This document shows positions 20,408-39,881 of a stretch of DNA of 64,000 nucleotides, one piece after another (within the stretch, counting starts at the first letter, position 1; the number at the start of each line of letters is the position of its first letter). Made by a program: the position numbers and the translations under genes. Where the stretch lies: positions 69,191 to 133,190 of the forward strand of contig ASMP01000001.1 of assembly GCA_000405225.1 (NCBI GenBank). Reading direction: 5' to 3'. The stretch comes from Nanoarchaeota archaeon SCGC AAA011-D5. Lineage in GTDB: Archaea; Nanobdellota; Nanobdellia; Pacearchaeales; GW2011-AR1. The notes below the pieces were generated by a model. The model did not search any database, was not told where the DNA came from, and saw only the letters and a list, made by a program, of their open reading frames with translations.

Positions 20408-20653
20408 ATGGTGCAGAACATAATTGATTTGGGTGAAAATGAAGACAGGATACTAAACATAGTGAAAGCCAAACACGGCCTTAAAAACAAATCCCAGGCA
20501 ATAGCAATGCTAGCCAAAGTCTACGAGGACAGTTTTCTTGAGCCTGAATTGAGGCCGAAATATATAGATAAATTAAAGAAAATTGAGAAAGAAGGATATG
20601 GTAAAACCTTTAAATCTATTGAAGAGTTGAGAAGAATAATAGAGAAAAGGTAA
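20408..20653 (+). CDS. putative antitoxin of a RelE/ParE-type TA pair
   Basis: 81 aa, 1 nt upstream of the toxin. Paralog of 51308-51598 (shared KxKYGLKxKSxAL core). Confidence 0.5.
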   Translation: MVQNIIDLGENEDRILNIVKAKHGLKNKSQAIAMLAKVYEDSFLEPELRPKYIDKLKKIEKEGYGKTFKSIEELRRIIEKR

Positions 20654-20654
20654 A

Positions 20655-20930
20655 ATGCCTAGGCAATATAAGACAAGCAAGAATTTTGATAGAATTCTTG
20701 ATAAGTTGAGGAAAAAAGACAAGATTGCCTTTGAAAGTCTCCTTAAAAAAATGGATGAAATCTTAAATATATCAAATGTAGAGCATTATAAAAATTTGAG
20801 ATATTCTTTAAAAGATTTTAAAAGAGCCCATGTTGGTTCTTTTGTCCTTGTTTTTAGGTATGACAAAAAAAATGACATAATCTTTTTTACAGATTTTGAC
20901 CATCATGATAATATTTATAAGAAAATCTAA
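20655..20930 (+). CDS. RelE/ParE-family toxin
   Basis: 91 aa. FKRAHVGSFVLVFRYDKKNDIIFFTDFDHHDNIYKKI matches the RelE/ParE C-terminal core. Paralog at 51599-51889. Confidence 0.65.
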   Translation: MPRQYKTSKNFDRILDKLRKKDKIAFESLLKKMDEILNISNVEHYKNLRYSLKDFKRAHVGSFVLVFRYDKKNDIIFFTDFDHHDNIYKKI

Positions 20931-20934
20931 CCCT

Positions 20935-21004
20935 TATTTTTGTTACTTCTTTAAAAGAACAACAAAATAGAAACATTTATAAATATCAGATTTCTAGGAA
21001 AAAT
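20935..21004 (+). promoter_or_regulatory. conserved promoter module, copy 2 (upstream of DGR target 1)
   Basis: TTGTTACTTCTTTAAAAGAACAA palindrome, then AAATAGAAACATTTATAAATA (BRE/TATA) about 25 nt from the ATG. Confidence 0.5.
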
Positions 21005-21886
21005 ATGGAAACAAAGACAAAATCAACATTCAAAGGAAAGCCTTTAATTGAAATTCCAGCATTTATACCCCAAATTGGTTTTCTAGAAGGAGATTTTGGT
21101 AGAGCTTTTCTTGAAGAACATCAGGGAAGAGCGGGCTCTGATTATAATGGCAATTCTGCACTGAATGTTCTTGGATATAATGGAAATGTAGTTACAGGGT
21201 CAAATCCATTTTCCGTAGTTCTTGCAAACCAAATTCTTAAACAAGAAGGCCTAAGAACAGCTTCCCAAGCTGACTTAGAAACAGCTATGAGAATTGGGGC
21301 TATGAATTTCAGAGGAACATATGAAGACACAGCTTTAGTTTTGAGAACAGAAGATGATAAAGACTATTCAAGAAACACTCCTTTAGCTAGAGACTTAGGA
21401 AGACAACTTAAAGAAAGAGGAGTAAAGTTCGGAGCTAAAAGTCCACTAATTATTCCTTTGACTGACTTAGATCTTCAAAAAGCAGAAAATGATTATGGTT
21501 TGACATTCAAATTAAGAGAAGATGCAGAAGTTTATGAAGCACCTATTTTAACAAAAGAAGGAAAATTCAATTCAGAAGATATTGATGAAAGAACAGGATT
21601 GCCAAAACAAGTTAAAGGTGGAAATAGAACTCTTTACTCTAGAAATTCTGGGCTTTCCGGGTTGTTCTTGGGCCTCGGCCTGGGCCTGGGCTCGGGCAAC
21701 TGGGGCTTGGACTACTCCAGTGTGGATGGCAGGGTGGTTCTTGTTAGCGCCGCAGGCGCGCGCGCCGATTTTGACCAAAGGCTGACAGGACTTGAAACTC
21801 AAAGACAAGAAGCACATCAGACATATCTTGCTAAATTATCTCAATTAATAGAGAGTATAGACAGTGAACTTAAGAGATCAAAGTAA
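21005..21886 (+). CDS. DGR variable (target) protein 1, carries VR1 near C-terminus
   Basis: 293 aa. C-terminal SGLSGLFLGLGLGLGSGNWGLDYSSVDGRVV is encoded by a sequence matching the TR at every non-adenine position. Paralog of 38429-39199. Confidence 0.7.
   Translation: METKTKSTFKGKPLIEIPAFIPQIGFLEGDFGRAFLEEHQGRAGSDYNGNSALNVLGYNGNVVTGSNPFSVVLANQILKQEGLRTASQADLETAMRIGAMNFRGTYEDTALVLRTEDDKDYSRNTPLARDLGRQLKERGVKFGAKSPLIIPLTDLDLQKAENDYGLTFKLREDAEVYEAPILTKEGKFNSEDIDERTGLPKQVKGGNRTLYSRNSGLSGLFLGLGLGLGSGNWGLDYSSVDGRVVLVSAAGARADFDQRLTGLETQRQEAHQTYLAKLSQLIESIDSELKRSK
21652..21737 (+). repeat. DGR variable repeat VR1
   Basis: About 86 nt aligned to TR 22081-22166. Roughly 22 mismatches, all at TR adenine positions (AAC codons changed to GGC/CTC/TAC etc.). 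Confidence 0.75.
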
Positions 21887-22080: not shown

Positions 22081-22166
22081 GCTTTCCAGGTTGTACTTGA
22101 ACAACGACCTGAACCTGAACTCGAACAACAGGAACTTGGACAACTCCAATGAGAATGGCAGAATGG
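22081..22166 (+). repeat. DGR template repeat (TR)
   Basis: AAC/AAT-rich (CTTGAACAACGACCTGAACCTGAACTCGAACAACAGGAAC...). Lies between the target gene and the RT. Identical to VR1 and VR2 except at adenines. Confidence 0.75.
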
Positions 22167-22194
22167 CTCAGATGGCTAGGATACTCATAATAAT

Positions 22195-23245
22195 ATGCGA
22201 TCTCATGATAACCTTTATCCTAAAATTTATTCTGTAGTAAACCTTGTCTTAGCTTGGAAGAAGGCTAGAAAGGGAAAAACTCGAAGAGATTATGTGATAG
22301 ACTTTGAACTAGAGTTAGGAAAAAACCTGAAGGCTTTGCATGAGGAACTAAAGAATAAGACTTACAGGCCAGGCCCATTAAAAACGTTCATCTTGAGAGA
22401 CCCAAAGACAAGAAAAATCTCGAAATCAGAATTTAGGGATAGGGTAGTTCATCATGCTTTAGTAAGAATGATTGAGCCAATTTTTGACAAAACATTTATT
22501 CATGATTCTTATGCAAACAGAAAAGGCAAAGGCAACCTGTTTGCTGTTGAAAGATTCTATAAATTCATCAGAAAAGTTTCACGAAATGGAAAAACTAAAG
22601 GATGGTTTAATAATAATCAGATAAAAGGATATTGCCTTAAAGCAGACATAAAGCATTATTTCCAAGAAGTTGACCATGAAATTCTATTAAGAATCATAAA
22701 AAAGAAAATAAAAGATAAAGATGTTATCTGGCTTATTGAAAGAATTTTGGAGAATAACGTTCATGATAATCCAAATGGCAAGGGAATGCCTCTTGGAAAT
22801 CTGACAAGCCAATTCTTTGCAAATGTTTATTTGCATGAGTTAGACAAATTTGTGAAACATAAGTTAAGAGCAAAATTTTACATAAGATATGTTGACGATT
22901 TTGTCTTGCTAAATTCATCAAGAGAAAAACTGCTAAGCTGGGGGGGGGGCGATAGAAGATTTTTTAGTTAAAAACCTAAAAATAGAACTTCATAAAGAAA
23001 AATCCAAAATTATCTCTCTTTCAAAAGGAATAGATTTTGTCGGCTTCAGGAATTTTTATCATTTCAGGCTTTTGAGGAAAAGAAACATCAGAAAAATGAT
23101 TTTTAATGTTAAAAAATATAAAAATAGGGAAATAAACAAGGAAAATCTTCTTGAAAGCTTTCAAGGCTGGAATGCCTATGCAAAATGGGCAGATAGTTTT
23201 GAATTAAGAAAAAATATTGTGAAAGAAATTTATAGTATAAAGTAG
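22195..23245 (+). CDS. DGR reverse transcriptase. Reading frame broken at a G10 run (22940-22949). Annotated ORF 22195-22971 plus in-phase continuation to 23245
   Basis: SYANRKGKG, LKADIKHYFQEVDH, the DGR-specific motif-4 variant MPLGNLTSQFFANVYL (xGxxxSQ instead of QGxxxSP), catalytic IRYVDDFVLL. After a +1 shift the frame continues IEDFLVKNLKIELHKEKS...GIDFVGF...FQGWNAYAKWADS. Confidence 0.85.
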
Positions 23246-35972: not shown

Positions 35973-38354
35973 ATGCCCATAACAAAACAAGAATTGACAG
36001 AGCTCTTTGAACAGCTTGGACAATACAAAACAAGGGCTACAGAACTTATAACTGTATATATTCCTGCCGGACAGAACATATATACGGTGGCTGACCAGCT
36101 CGAGGCAGAGAAATCTACTGCGAAAAACATAAAATCTGCAGGAACCAGGAAAAATGTCGGCAATGCTCTTGATAAGATAACCAGGCAGCTTAAGGAATAC
36201 AAAAAAACCCCTGAAAACGGTCTTGCAATTTTTTGCGGGAACATATCCAAAGTTGAAGGCCAAGAAGATTTACAACTTTGGGCTATAGAGCCTCACACGC
36301 CTCTGAAAACAAGAATGTATCGCTGTGACAAAGAATTTATTCTTGATCCTCTGAGAGAAATGCTGGAAGTGACAGAGGTTTTTGGACTTTTGGTCATGGA
36401 CAGGAGAGAGGCAACAATTGGCATGCTTGAGGGAAAAAGGATAGAGACTCTTCATAAAATGACTTCAGGTATTCCTTCAAAAATAAGGGCCGGAGGGCAA
36501 TGCTTAGCTCAGGATACATTGATTATGAAAGATAATGGGGAAATCTTAGAAATTCAGAATTCACACAACCCCTTAATGATTATTTCTGAGAATTTTAATC
36601 AAGAGAGATCAGAAATGACACCCTTAATTGCTAAATGGGAAAATAACAAAGAATTGTTTAGGGTTATAACAAAATATCCTAAATTAGAGGTTAAAGCATC
36701 TGGTGAACATACTTTCTTTGTTAGGACAACCAGAGGTATAGAGGAAAAAACTCTTTCTGAACTTAAAGAGGGAGATTATCTAATTATGCCTGAAAAGATT
36801 AATTTACATTTGGAAGACCAAAAAATTGTCTTTTCTCCAGAAATTAAACAAGCCTTTAATATGAAAAATATCCAAACTCTTAATAAAGTTATTCCTGATT
36901 TTGCTAGAATTTTGGGCTATTATCTTGGAGATGGATGTTATGAAATTGACAGATTAACTTTCTTTGAACAGAGAGGAGAAGTAGCTAGATATTATCTGGA
37001 TTTAATTGAGAAGGTTTTTGGAATTAAATCTGACTTAAGATTTAGAAAAGATAAAAATTATTGGCAATTAAGGGTTTATAGCAGATTGGTCTCTCAATTA
37101 TTTAAACAAATTTATCCTGGACAAGATAAAACCCATGCCGGAAGAATACCCCCTATCATATTAAAATCTTCTGATATTGCCCTAGCTTCTTTCATTGGGG
37201 GATTTTTTGATGCTGAAGGATATGTTGCAAAAACAAGAATTGCTGCAGGATTTAACAATGAATTGTTAGCTAGACAATTACAATTTGCTTTATTGAGGGT
37301 AGGTATCATATCTTCAATAAATATTTATGATAATAGAAGAAACCCTTATTCAGACAAATTTAGATATACTCTGGCAATTGACGATTTAGAATCTATTAAA
37401 ATCTTCCAAAAAATGATTAACTTTTGTTCTGAAGAAAAAAGGAATAAGATTCAAAACCTAATTAACAAGAGGAGCAATAGAAATAAAGTTAGGCAATTAG
37501 TTGTAAATGGGAAAGAGATTGCTAGAATAATAAGGAATTCTGGTTTAAATACGAGGCAATTTAGCTGCCCTGATTTCTTTAATAATAAGAAACAATTAAG
37601 TAAAAAGGTATTTAAAAAGAGAATCTTAGATAAAATTAGTAATAATGACCTAAAAAGAAGATTAGAAATGTTCTATAATTCCAACCTTATAATTGTCAAA
37701 ATTAATAATATTAAATCGGTTGGTATTCAGAAAACTATAGATATAGAAACTAAAAACCATAACTTTATTGCCAATGGTTTAATAGTCCACAATTCAAGCC
37801 AGAGATTTCACAGAATAACAGAAGGCCTGACAAAAGAATTCTATAAGAGAATTGCAGAAGACATGAAAAAAATTTTCCTTGGAATGCCAAAACTTAAAGG
37901 AATACTGATAGGGGGCCCGATACCGACTAAAGACGAGTTTTTAAAAGGGGAATATCTGACAAATCAGCTTCAGCAGAAAGTAATGGGAAAGATAGACATA
38001 GGAGATGCCTCTGAGTCTGGTCTGGGAGAACTGGTGGAAAAAGCGAAGAATCTTTTGGCAGACCAAGAGAGGCTTCAGGAAAAAAAAGACGTTGAACTTT
38101 TCTTCAGGGTTTTAGGGGAAGACCCTGGAAAAGCAGCACTCGGTGAAAAAGAAAGCAGAAAGGCCTTGGAAATGGGAGCTGTTGCTACTTTATATGTAAG
38201 TTCCAAGATTCCCAAGAGTCTTATAAAAGAACTTTCAAAAATGACCGAAAACACAGGTTCAGAAATAAAGACCATTTCTACAGATACACCGGAAGGCGAG
38301 CAGTTTTTTAATATGGGCGGAGTAGGAGCAATTTTAAGATTCAGGATTGGGTAA
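35973..38354 (+). CDS. prf1: peptide chain release factor aRF1 interrupted by an intein
   Basis: NIKS motif (TAKNIKSAG) and GGQ loop (IRAGGQ) followed directly by Cys. Extein resumes SSQRFHRITEG. C-terminal domain matches eRF1. Confidence 0.85.
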   Translation: MPITKQELTELFEQLGQYKTRATELITVYIPAGQNIYTVADQLEAEKSTAKNIKSAGTRKNVGNALDKITRQLKEYKKTPENGLAIFCGNISKVEGQEDLQLWAIEPHTPLKTRMYRCDKEFILDPLREMLEVTEVFGLLVMDRREATIGMLEGKRIETLHKMTSGIPSKIRAGGQCLAQDTLIMKDNGEILEIQNSHNPLMIISENFNQERSEMTPLIAKWENNKELFRVITKYPKLEVKASGEHTFFVRTTRGIEEKTLSELKEGDYLIMPEKINLHLEDQKIVFSPEIKQAFNMKNIQTLNKVIPDFARILGYYLGDGCYEIDRLTFFEQRGEVARYYLDLIEKVFGIKSDLRFRKDKNYWQLRVYSRLVSQLFKQIYPGQDKTHAGRIPPIILKSSDIALASFIGGFFDAEGYVAKTRIAAGFNNELLARQLQFALLRVGIISSINIYDNRRNPYSDKFRYTLAIDDLESIKIFQKMINFCSEEKRNKIQNLINKRSNRNKVRQLVVNGKEIARIIRNSGLNTRQFSCPDFFNNKKQLSKKVFKKRILDKISNNDLKRRLEMFYNSNLIIVKINNIKSVGIQKTIDIETKNHNFIANGLIVHNSSQRFHRITEGLTKEFYKRIAEDMKKIFLGMPKLKGILIGGPIPTKDEFLKGEYLTNQLQQKVMGKIDIGDASESGLGELVEKAKNLLADQERLQEKKDVELFFRVLGEDPGKAALGEKESRKALEMGAVATLYVSSKIPKSLIKELSKMTENTGSEIKTISTDTPEGEQFFNMGGVGAILRFRIG
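36501..37793 (+). mobile_element. intein with LAGLIDADG homing endonuclease, inserted after GGQ of aRF1
   Basis: Starts with Cys (CLAQDTLI), ends ...GLIVHN followed by Ser. Two LAGLIDADG-type motifs ILGYYLGDGCYE and FIGGFFDAEGYV. About 431 aa. Confidence 0.75.
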
Positions 38355-38360
38355 ATCAAT

Positions 38361-38428
38361 AATTTGTTACCTCTTTCAAAGAACAATAAAATAGAAAAAT
38401 TTATAAAGTTCATTTTTCTGGGAAAATT
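38361..38428 (+). promoter_or_regulatory. conserved promoter module, copy 3 (upstream of DGR target 2)
   Basis: TTTGTTACCTCTTTCAAAGAACAATAAAATAGAAAAATTTATAAAG... homologous to copies 1 and 2. Confidence 0.5.
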
Positions 38429-39199
38429 ATGGAAACAAAGGCAAAACGTCCAGTATTCAATGGAAAGCCGTTAATTGCAATTCCAGCAGTTATTCCACAG
38501 GCAGGTTTTCTTGAAGGAGACTTTGGAAAAGCTTTCTTAGAAGAATATCAAGGAAGAGTTAAATCTGATTATAAAGGAAATTTTGTTTTAGATGTTCTCA
38601 AATATGGAAATGATGTTGTAAAAGGCTCAAATCCTTTTGCAGTTGTTCTTGCAAACCAGATTCTCAGGCAGGAAGGATTAAGAACAGCAACACAAGCTGA
38701 CCTTGAAAAAGCACTTAGAATTGGTTGGAATTTAAGAGGAACATATGAAGATACTGGTCTGGTTTTAAGAACAAAAGAAGACAAAGACAATCCAAAAAAT
38801 ACTCCTTTAGCGAAAGATATTAGCTCTCAACTTATGGCAAGGGGAATAAAATTCAGTCCTAAGAATCCAGTAATGGTTCCTTTAACAGGACTGGAACTTG
38901 CGAATGCAGATAATGATTACAGATTAACATTCATATTAAGGGAAGACGCAGAAGCTTATGAAGCACCTATTTTAACAAAAGAAGGAAAATTCAATTCAGA
39001 AGATATTGATGAAAAAACAGGATTACCAAGACAAGTTAAAGGCGGAGACAGATGCATTTATGCTAGAAACTCTGGGCTTTCCGGGTTGTGCTTGGGCGGC
39101 GGCCTGGTCCTGAGCTCGAGCGACGGGGGCTTGGGCGGCTCCTATGAGGATGGCAGGGTGGTCGTTGTAAGTGCTGAAGGCACCTCACAAAATTCTTGA
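38429..39199 (+). CDS. DGR variable (target) protein 2, remote paralog carrying VR2
   Basis: 256 aa, roughly 70% identical to 21005-21886 over the N-terminal 210 aa. C-terminus diverges only where the TR has adenines. Confidence 0.7.
   Translation: METKAKRPVFNGKPLIAIPAVIPQAGFLEGDFGKAFLEEYQGRVKSDYKGNFVLDVLKYGNDVVKGSNPFAVVLANQILRQEGLRTATQADLEKALRIGWNLRGTYEDTGLVLRTKEDKDNPKNTPLAKDISSQLMARGIKFSPKNPVMVPLTGLELANADNDYRLTFILREDAEAYEAPILTKEGKFNSEDIDEKTGLPRQVKGGDRCIYARNSGLSGLCLGGGLVLSSSDGGLGGSYEDGRVVVVSAEGTSQNS
39076..39161 (+). repeat. DGR variable repeat VR2 (remote)
   Basis: Aligns to TR 22081-22166. About 22 mismatches, all at TR adenines. Substitutions differ from VR1 (for example AAC to GTC/AGC/GAC). 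Confidence 0.7.
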
Positions 39200-39245: not shown

Positions 39246-39881
39246 ATGCAAAAAAACAGAGGAGACCTAATATTCTGGCTGTTCGGCTCTTATCTAATCC
39301 TTATAGGAATGCTTGCCTTTGTCAATGCTTTCTTGCATCTGGAAGATGCTATTCCATTATGGTTTTCTTATATCGCTGTTTTTCTTATCGGAATTGGAGT
39401 CATCACAAAAAATTCTGATATGATTGCAATCCAAGCAAACATTATCGCCATACCATATATTTTCTGGAATATTGATTTTTTTTATCAACTGGCAACCAGC
39501 AGACCTTTATGGGGAATCACCGACTATTTTTTTATCAAAGAGGGGATGAATTCGCTGGGCAATTTCGTAACTCTGGAGCATATTTACATTGTTCCTGTCG
39601 CGATAGGGTTTATTTATCTTCTCGGAGCCCATAGAAAAGATTTATGGAAAATAAGCTTACTCGAAATAGCTATCATCTTTTTCATGACTTTTTTCCTTTC
39701 TTCTAGTGAAATGAATGCCAACTGCGTCTTTAGTTCCTGCATAAGCTTCATTTCTTTAGAAAGCCCTGGTTACCAATTCTTATGGTTTTTTACTGTTTTT
39801 ATCATAATCTTCTTGACAAATCATCTTCTTGTTTATCTTATGAAAAAGGCTCACAGATTTGATATGAAGCCCGATGAATAA
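39246..39881 (+). CDS. membrane protein, hypothetical
   Basis: Multiple TM helices. Confidence 0.45.
   Translation: MQKNRGDLIFWLFGSYLILIGMLAFVNAFLHLEDAIPLWFSYIAVFLIGIGVITKNSDMIAIQANIIAIPYIFWNIDFFYQLATSRPLWGITDYFFIKEGMNSLGNFVTLEHIYIVPVAIGFIYLLGAHRKDLWKISLLEIAIIFFMTFFLSSSEMNANCVFSSCISFISLESPGYQFLWFFTVFIIIFLTNHLLVYLMKKAHRFDMKPDE

Follow-up and report, generated by a model that had tools for sequence, protein, structure and literature searches.

A diversity-generating retroelement (DGR) lies within a 64,000-nucleotide stretch of the genome of Nanoarchaeota archaeon SCGC AAA011-D5 (contig ASMP01000001.1, positions 69,191 to 133,190; hereafter the window). The genes that concern us are the proximal target T1, the template region (TR) and reverse transcriptase (RT) that adjoin it, and T2, a distant paralog of T1 encoded by the open reading frame (ORF) 38429-39199. 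T2 is very probably a non-adjacent (trans) target of this single DGR, rewritten independently of T1. The cassette has the order T1-TR-RT and is set among genes for MCM, TBP, 3-methyladenine glycosylase, a DUF2683/ParE pair and DNA ligase. The sequence is archaeal, and the closest locus that was retrieved, L005 from a Nanoarchaeota metagenome-assembled genome (MAG), shares 80% identity in the RT (intact in L005), 81% in MCM, 92% in TBP and 79% in the ligase. The window holds one RT and one TR. The RT translation contains LGNLTSQ, corresponding to motif 4 of the DGR clade ([LIV]GxxxSQ), and YVDD, corresponding to the YxDD box, but the gene lacks an intact reading frame, and motifs 6-7 are carried by the second of its two frames. 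Its homologues number in the thousands and come mainly from Nano-, Pace- and Woesearchaeota. T2 follows an intein-containing aRF1 gene and precedes a hydrophobic membrane protein (ORF 39246-39881, visibly multi-pass) and then ScpB; the initial annotation of this DNA had correctly placed it between aRF1 and a membrane protein. Coordinates are collected in Table 1, in which VR denotes a variable region, IMH the initiation of mutagenic homing element and IMH* its counterpart in the TR.

Table 1. Features of the DGR and its two targets in the window
Feature	Position	Strand	Remarks
Proximal target gene T1	21005-21886	+	293 aa, long form; VR1 21652-21737, IMH-like motif 21732-21738, hairpin 21747-21759
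T1 hairpin GCGCC-GCA-GGCGC	21747-21759	+	Inside T1, after VR1
TR	22081-22166	+	AAC/AAT-rich coding frame; IMH* GAATGGC 22161-22167; no hairpin after
DGR RT, two frames (22195-22971 and +1 frame about 22946-23245)	22195-23245	+	RVT_1 match, E 1.5e-15; LGNLTSQ, YVDD
G10 homopolymer at RT frame break	22940-22949	+	Sole G/C run of at least 8 in the 64-kb window; G9 would restore frame
Upstream region duplicated with T2, with TATA-like TTTATAAA at 38400-38407	38363-38428	+	About 87% identity to 20939-21004 (T1 upstream)
Remote target gene T2	38429-39199	+	256 aa, short form without C-terminal helix; predicted C-type-lectin-like fold
VR2, variable region of T2	39076-39161	+	57/57 non-A TR positions the same; 22/29 A positions changed
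IMH-like end motif GGGTGGT, 3' end of VR2 (TR: GAATGGC)	39156-39162	+	Fixed family difference; TR/VR homology ends here
T2 hairpin GTGCT-GAA-GGCAC	39171-39183	+	In T2 coding sequence, 9 nt past IMH-like motif; same register as T1 hairpin

The TR was scanned ungapped over both strands of the window, with its adenines treated as wildcards. Exactly two further sites were returned: VR1 at the 3' end of the T1 ORF and VR2 at the 3' end of the T2 ORF, the latter 16,995 bp from the TR. At each of them all 57 non-adenine positions of the TR are identical and 22 of the 29 adenines are changed, to 16 G, 5 T and 1 C in VR1 and to 20 G and 2 T in VR2, so that both TR/VR pairs differ only at template adenines. 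The initial annotation had reported a second VR some 17 kb away that departs from the TR at about 22 positions, all of them adenines, and both the distance and the pattern hold. VR2 is located outside the cassette, carries A-to-N changes only and belongs to no other DGR in the window. Read in the frame of the VRs, the TR encodes LSRLYLNNDLNLNSNNRNLDNSNENGRM; such AAC/AAT-rich coding is typical of DGR templates.

The identity of the VRs at non-adenine positions, which includes all third codon positions (28/28) and extends across VR1, VR2 and TR, stands against considerable divergence elsewhere in the two genes. Outside the VR, the coding DNA of T1 and T2 is 77% identical, and the third codon positions only 64%. 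Diverged flanks around identical non-adenine positions indicate that VR1 and VR2 were both overwritten from this TR after the paralogs had diverged. The two VRs differ from one another at 14 positions, every one a TR adenine, whereas each differs from the TR at 22. The initial annotation had held that a VR2 closer to VR1 than to the TR would imply simple duplication. By count VR2 is indeed closer to VR1, yet the comparison is not diagnostic, because A-to-G changes dominate in this RT family. Across 24 TR/VR pairs (the window plus L005-L033), the substitutions at TR adenines comprise 282 G, 80 T and 12 C, a spectrum of 75% A to G, 21% A to T and 3% A to C, and with such dominance two independent products will share many G's. 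Agreement between VR1 and VR2 at adenine sites is 15/29, as compared to 13.1 expected for independent draws (permutation with the same base compositions; P=0.25). Because this sharing is at the level of chance, nothing suggests that either VR served as the source of the other, and a VR1 origin of VR2 was rejected. The three-way comparison of TR, VR1 and VR2 that the initial annotation had proposed disclosed no difference at any non-adenine position. Its conclusion of two separate homing events from one TR is sustained by the adenine-only differences, the 57/57 identity elsewhere, the chance-level sharing and the diverged flanks. Either a misincorporation preference of the RT or selection for Gly, Asp and Ser codons could conceivably underlie the A-to-G skew.

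Both VRs also retain the elements that distinguish a target from its template. An IMH-like GGGT[GA]GT in the VR, as opposed to GAAT[GA]GC (IMH*) in the TR, is fixed in all TR/VR pairs of the family with an alignable 3' boundary, and in those pairs the TR/VR homology stops at this motif. The fixed GG/AA contrast means that the last two apparently mutated adenines, 22162-22163, reflect the IMH/IMH* difference and not random mutagenesis, a distinction that the initial annotation had not drawn. A search with the IMH-like sequence GGTGGTnnTTGTnAGnGC, suggested in the initial annotation for the whole genome and carried out here across the 64 kb, found exactly two occurrences, both at VR ends, where 0.02 would be expected by chance.

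An inverted repeat follows the motif in T1 and T2, and no hairpin is predicted in the flank of the TR. Folding of the two hairpins as single sequences was not significant (z -0.5 and -1.4), and we therefore relied on covariation. Across 32 family members the stem positions pair in 84% of cells, as compared to 23-45% in slid controls, and the covariation score is 0.425 against 0.03-0.125 for the controls, a value reached by 0 of 500 shuffles. Variable stem pairs show compensatory changes, UA/CG at one and GC/CG/AU at another. Since the end motif and the covarying hairpin are both kept at T2, the gene has everything that a target is thought to need. The hairpin region (for example 39168-39185) spans codons for Ser-Ala-Glu-Gly-Thr or Ser-Gly-Glu-Ala-Thr, and the Ala and Gly positions swap together; because the stem lies in these codons, the DNA structure appears to drive the swap, and a constraint on DNA would thus surface as amino-acid covariation in the target protein.

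These features fit a scheme modelled by analogy on the Bordetella phage BPP-1, from which the retrohoming mechanism itself is taken. After transcription of the TR, the adjacent RT would copy the transcript into cDNA and misincorporate opposite adenines of the template, mainly with A-to-G changes as the result. Any gene with the recognition elements would then have the matching 86 nt at its 3' end replaced by the cDNA. These elements are a stretch of VR/TR homology that terminates in GGGTGGT and, 9 nt beyond it, a short GC-rich hairpin with a tri-loop; GAATGGC would protect the TR. T1 and T2 carry these features, as a third paralog would, and each appears to have been rewritten separately. The outcome would be three C-type-lectin-like binding proteins that differ at their tips, in long forms (with a C-terminal helix) and short forms, apparently under one shared promoter region.

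The third paralog, P0008 (293 aa), is encoded outside the window on the same 273,356-bp contig and is 85% identical to T1. Adenine-only changes from the TR suffice to produce its VR peptide, LSGLFLYGGLDLYSYYGYLDFSFEYGRV, at 28/28 residues, which none of 100,000 shuffles achieved; this VR is rich in A-to-T changes (Tyr/Phe) and not in A-to-G changes. We also examined 39 related loci from GTDB genomes, of which 16 have an RT within 1-2 kb. In fifteen of these 16, a TR shows adenine-only mismatches to one or two adjacent targets; the TR scan found none in L025 or in the degraded L031. The other 23 loci contain a family member but no RT or TR in the DNA examined, which for several included 10 kb on each side. 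Remote targets recur in a related genome: the L033 VR pairs with the L013 TR, located on another contig of the same Woesearchaeota MAG, through 15 A-to-G and 2 A-to-T changes. Among the RT-less copies, those in L001, L011, L020 and L029 are still intact. Six others (L002, L003, L004, L032, L034 and L035) have lost the GGGT end motif, reading GAAT or GGAT as a TR would, have lost the hairpin as well and stop short, which gives them the look of copies that have decayed or were never targeted.

Several observations weigh against T2 as a target of this DGR. The assembled RT ORF is frameshifted at the G10 tract (22940-22949). The cassette lacks an Avd gene, in that Pfam on the neighbouring genes detected nothing Avd-like, nor did clustering of the small ORFs around 17 RTs (the one here and those of 16 relatives) bring out a conserved one; among catalogued DGRs an Avd gene is frequent without being universal (PMC5758913). 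When metagenome contigs were scanned with the TR/VR backbone, its adenines given as N, 0 matches were obtained. The contig, at 273 kb, also extends well beyond the window, and VR2 might therefore be served by a second DGR with its own TR and RT elsewhere, the match to the present TR reflecting two sister TRs. The position of the third paralog outside the window, and the four or more DGRs per genome carried by DUSEL4 nanoarchaea (PMC4372165), would be compatible with that arrangement. However, VR2 fits the present TR at 57/57 non-adenine positions, the window contains no other TR or RT, and the best 120 RT homologues include a single protein from the 273,356-bp contig, which is the RT of the window itself. 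A second DGR as the source of VR2 is accordingly very improbable. Even less credible, to the point of being negligible, is an ordinary duplication in which gene conversion or selection preserved the C-terminal likeness and no retrohoming took place at T2. The smaller distance of VR2 to VR1 (14 differences) than to the TR (22) and the duplication of the promoter region along with the gene would agree with such a history. Yet all VR1/VR2 differences fall at TR adenines, with 0/57 elsewhere, and sharing at the adenine sites is what chance predicts under a 75% A-to-G bias. Conversion between the VRs would erase the 14 adenine-site differences, and selection cannot yield 28/28 identical third positions beside 64% in the flanks. 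Plain duplication and gene conversion were thus rejected as contradicted by the adenine-only differences.

The frameshift raises a further alternative, that VR2 was written earlier by a DGR that has since died through decay of its RT to a pseudogene, leaving T2 as a frozen variant. Beyond the break at G10, frame breaks occur in 7 of 17 related RT genes, many inactivated DGRs were noted by Wu et al. (PMC5758913), and Paul et al. considered that VR fragments lacking an RT might be "fossils" (PMC4372165). On the other hand, the non-adenine positions of the VR, all third codon positions included, still match the TR although the flanks are 23% diverged, and the end motif and hairpin are intact. Both halves of the RT are free of stops. 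The segment downstream of the break has a ratio of nonsynonymous to synonymous substitution rates (dN/dS) of 0.13 in comparison to the intact L005 RT, which indicates purifying selection and translation through most of its history; taken with the stop-free halves, this implies that the break need not mean loss of RT function. In addition, the tract at the break is hypermutable: of two assemblies of one strain, 99.95% identical, one has the in-frame G9 and the other G10, so the lesion is likely to be reversible or bypassed. A fossil origin of VR2 is for these reasons unlikely, although it deserves to be taken seriously, and we favour T2 as an independently rewritten trans target of this DGR. 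The element may be active at present, which would depend on expression of the G10-interrupted RT.

The tract at which the RT breaks is itself unusual. The RT ORF stops at 22971, and the remaining motifs follow in the +1 frame to about 23245. Runs of G7 to G12 occupy the same RT codon across 9 lineages, and only two alleles, both G9 (L005 and L058), are in frame. L046 and L005 are identical at 99.95% over 3,991 bp, and their sole indel is G10 versus G9. The related loci, 584 kb in all, contain six G/C runs of at least 8, five of them inside RT genes. The tracts lie at L005 10232, L006 11809, L013 2033, L008 4248 and L014 2637, with further poly-G RT loci in L042, L046, L050, L055, L058 and L062. 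A second poly-G site just before LGNLTSQ is found in L008 (G11) and L014 (G9), at a frame break in both, and relatives that lack a tract at the first site read TGGAAAGAA there. The RT gene thus has an in-ORF homopolymer that varies in length between close relatives and shifts the frame, as is characteristic of homopolymer contingency loci (slipped-strand phase variation). We considered whether poly-G might be a read-end artefact of two-colour chemistry and rejected this, given homologous coding sequence on both sides, the same codon and independent assemblies.

These data suggest a hypermutable tract that acts as an on/off switch for the RT or that slippage bypasses; the break may also stem from assembly error or recent decay. 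A more specific proposal, which we put forward tentatively and rate as somewhat less probable than its negation, is that, in a DPANN DGR subclade, a hypermutable poly-G tract sits in the RT gene either behind YVDD or directly ahead of LGNLTSQ, with a length (G7-G12) that usually disrupts the reading frame. Synthesis of full-length RT would then require slippage, either of the DNA (phase variation) or at the level of transcription or the ribosome, gating all targets, proximal and remote. If correct, this would amount to a stochastic on/off switch, or a low-level throttle, on the hypermutation of every target. A scan of viral contigs for the poly-G RT site found nothing, and a literature search found no link between DGRs and homopolymer switching; to our knowledge, no hypermutation engine under its own stochastic switch has been described. 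The RT poly-G tracts would be of wider interest if real, and are the item most deserving of further work. Other RT frame breaks coincide with poly-A, in L023 at about 12300 and in L013 at about 1615 (A8 and A6). The L013 RT has several breaks and a homology gap of about 600 nt, and the L013 TR still matches two VRs.

T1 and T2 have no Pfam family at E<=0.01 and no sequence match in the PDB, either with the single protein or with a family profile (E<=10), and so fall outside the annotated C-type lectin (CLec), FGE-sulfatase and DUF1566 sequence families. The AlphaFold model of T2 is confident (predicted local distance difference test, pLDDT, 86), and its predicted fold is that of a C-type lectin with the VR at the C-terminal end; the top structural matches of the model are DGR variable proteins. 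Among these, TaqVP, the variable protein of a Thermus aquaticus DGR (5vf4; PMC6328139), shares only 10% sequence identity and is a bacterial protein of 381 aa in another domain context. The model of T1 shows the T2 fold plus a single predicted helix, 256-292. T2 ends 5 residues past ..VVVVSAEG, where T1 continues into a 42-aa extension. The initial annotation was right about the short end of T2 and the helical nature of the T1 extension, for which it had given 45 aa; likewise, its estimate of about 70% identity between the paralogs was accurate in the percentage but not in the length, which is 252 aa and not about 210. Some 400 homologues were found, all unnamed and from DPANN-type assemblies. 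They share the scaffold GLSxLxLxxxLxLxSxxxxLxxSxxxGRVVVVS, in which the fixed residues correspond to codons without adenine. Long and short forms recur across the family, often as a tandem pair ahead of one TR. The target proteins presumably bind ligands.

Remote DGR targets and DPANN DGRs have both been published (PMC5758913, PMC4372165), and the closest precedent is the set of DUSEL4 Nanoarchaeota DGRs with AvpA (PMC4372165; structure 5ioo). In common with the present system, these have a DPANN host, an orphan target with a C-type lectin fold (predicted in our case), GGGT in the VR versus GAAT in the TR, a hairpin with a tri-loop (GRA-type) that falls within the target gene, and VR genes without a neighbouring RT that were proposed to be fossils or remotely diversified (PMC4372165). 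The differences are that here the RT-less VR and the TR share one contig, which makes the remote link explicit, and that the loop of the T1 hairpin is GCA and not GRA. The Treponema denticola DGR, with TvpA and six scattered targets (Wu et al. 2018, PMC5758913), similarly has one TR and RT serving several paralogous genes of CLec fold, but it belongs to a bacterium, includes Avd along with an HRDC accessory gene, and acts on lipoproteins (PMC5758913). Non-adjacent targets have been catalogued at distances of kilobases to megabases and recognised by adenine-only differences from the TR (PMC5758913). In the set from the Candidate Phyla Radiation (CPR) and DPANN, Wu et al. found mostly single adjacent targets (PMC5758913), in contrast to the tandem double targets and remote copies that are common in the present family.

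The comparison with the BPP-1 element (Mtd, TR, Avd and bRT) is one of mechanism. Shared features are mutagenic retrohoming that carries TR sequence into a VR at the C-terminal end of a CLec fold (for the present element an expectation by analogy), the IMH/IMH* asymmetry and downstream hairpin that give directionality, and AAC-rich TR codons. Unlike in BPP-1, no Avd was found here, the hairpin (stem of 5-6 bp, loop of 3 nt) is located inside the ORF, substitutions strongly favour A to G, and the element is chromosomal, among housekeeping genes (MCM, TBP and DNA ligase), and not in a phage.

The remote-target finding leaves the known picture of DGRs unchanged. It contributes a clean single-contig DPANN case in which one TR and RT would serve the gene next to them, a paralog at a distance and a third copy elsewhere, with the recognition elements kept at the remote site, and it links a family without Pfam annotation to a predicted C-type lectin fold. 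Large surveys state that remote targets escape them (PMC8144416). The many RT-less copies in the unannotated target family of about 400 members suggest that the reach of DPANN DGRs is undercounted.

The likeness of T1 and T2 extends upstream of the genes. About 66-68 nt ahead of the start codon are common to both at about 87% identity, which is above that of the coding DNA, and further upstream there is no similarity. The TATA-like TTTATAAA stands 29 nt before the ATG in both genes. The duplication therefore carried the likely promoter with it, and this shared region probably functions as one; its sequence suggests a common promoter, possibly with leaderless transcripts, and co-regulation of the two targets.

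Some features of the surroundings can be added. The intein in the aRF1 gene upstream of T2 (35973-38354, 793 aa in total) includes a homing endonuclease domain of the LAGLIDADG type. Directly upstream of T1 is the toxin-antitoxin-like DUF2683/ParE pair (20408-20930), which is also found beside the DGR targets in L022 (378-897) and in 0/15 other RT loci. In L010 (450-12217), a complete DGR cassette adjoins genes for an aminoacyl-tRNA synthetase (aaRS) and aRF1, the genes that flank T2 in the window, and L026 (7478-20737) has an RT-less copy between an aaRS-like gene and ScpB. By this synteny the T2 site may be a former cassette location, which hints at the origin of remote copies.
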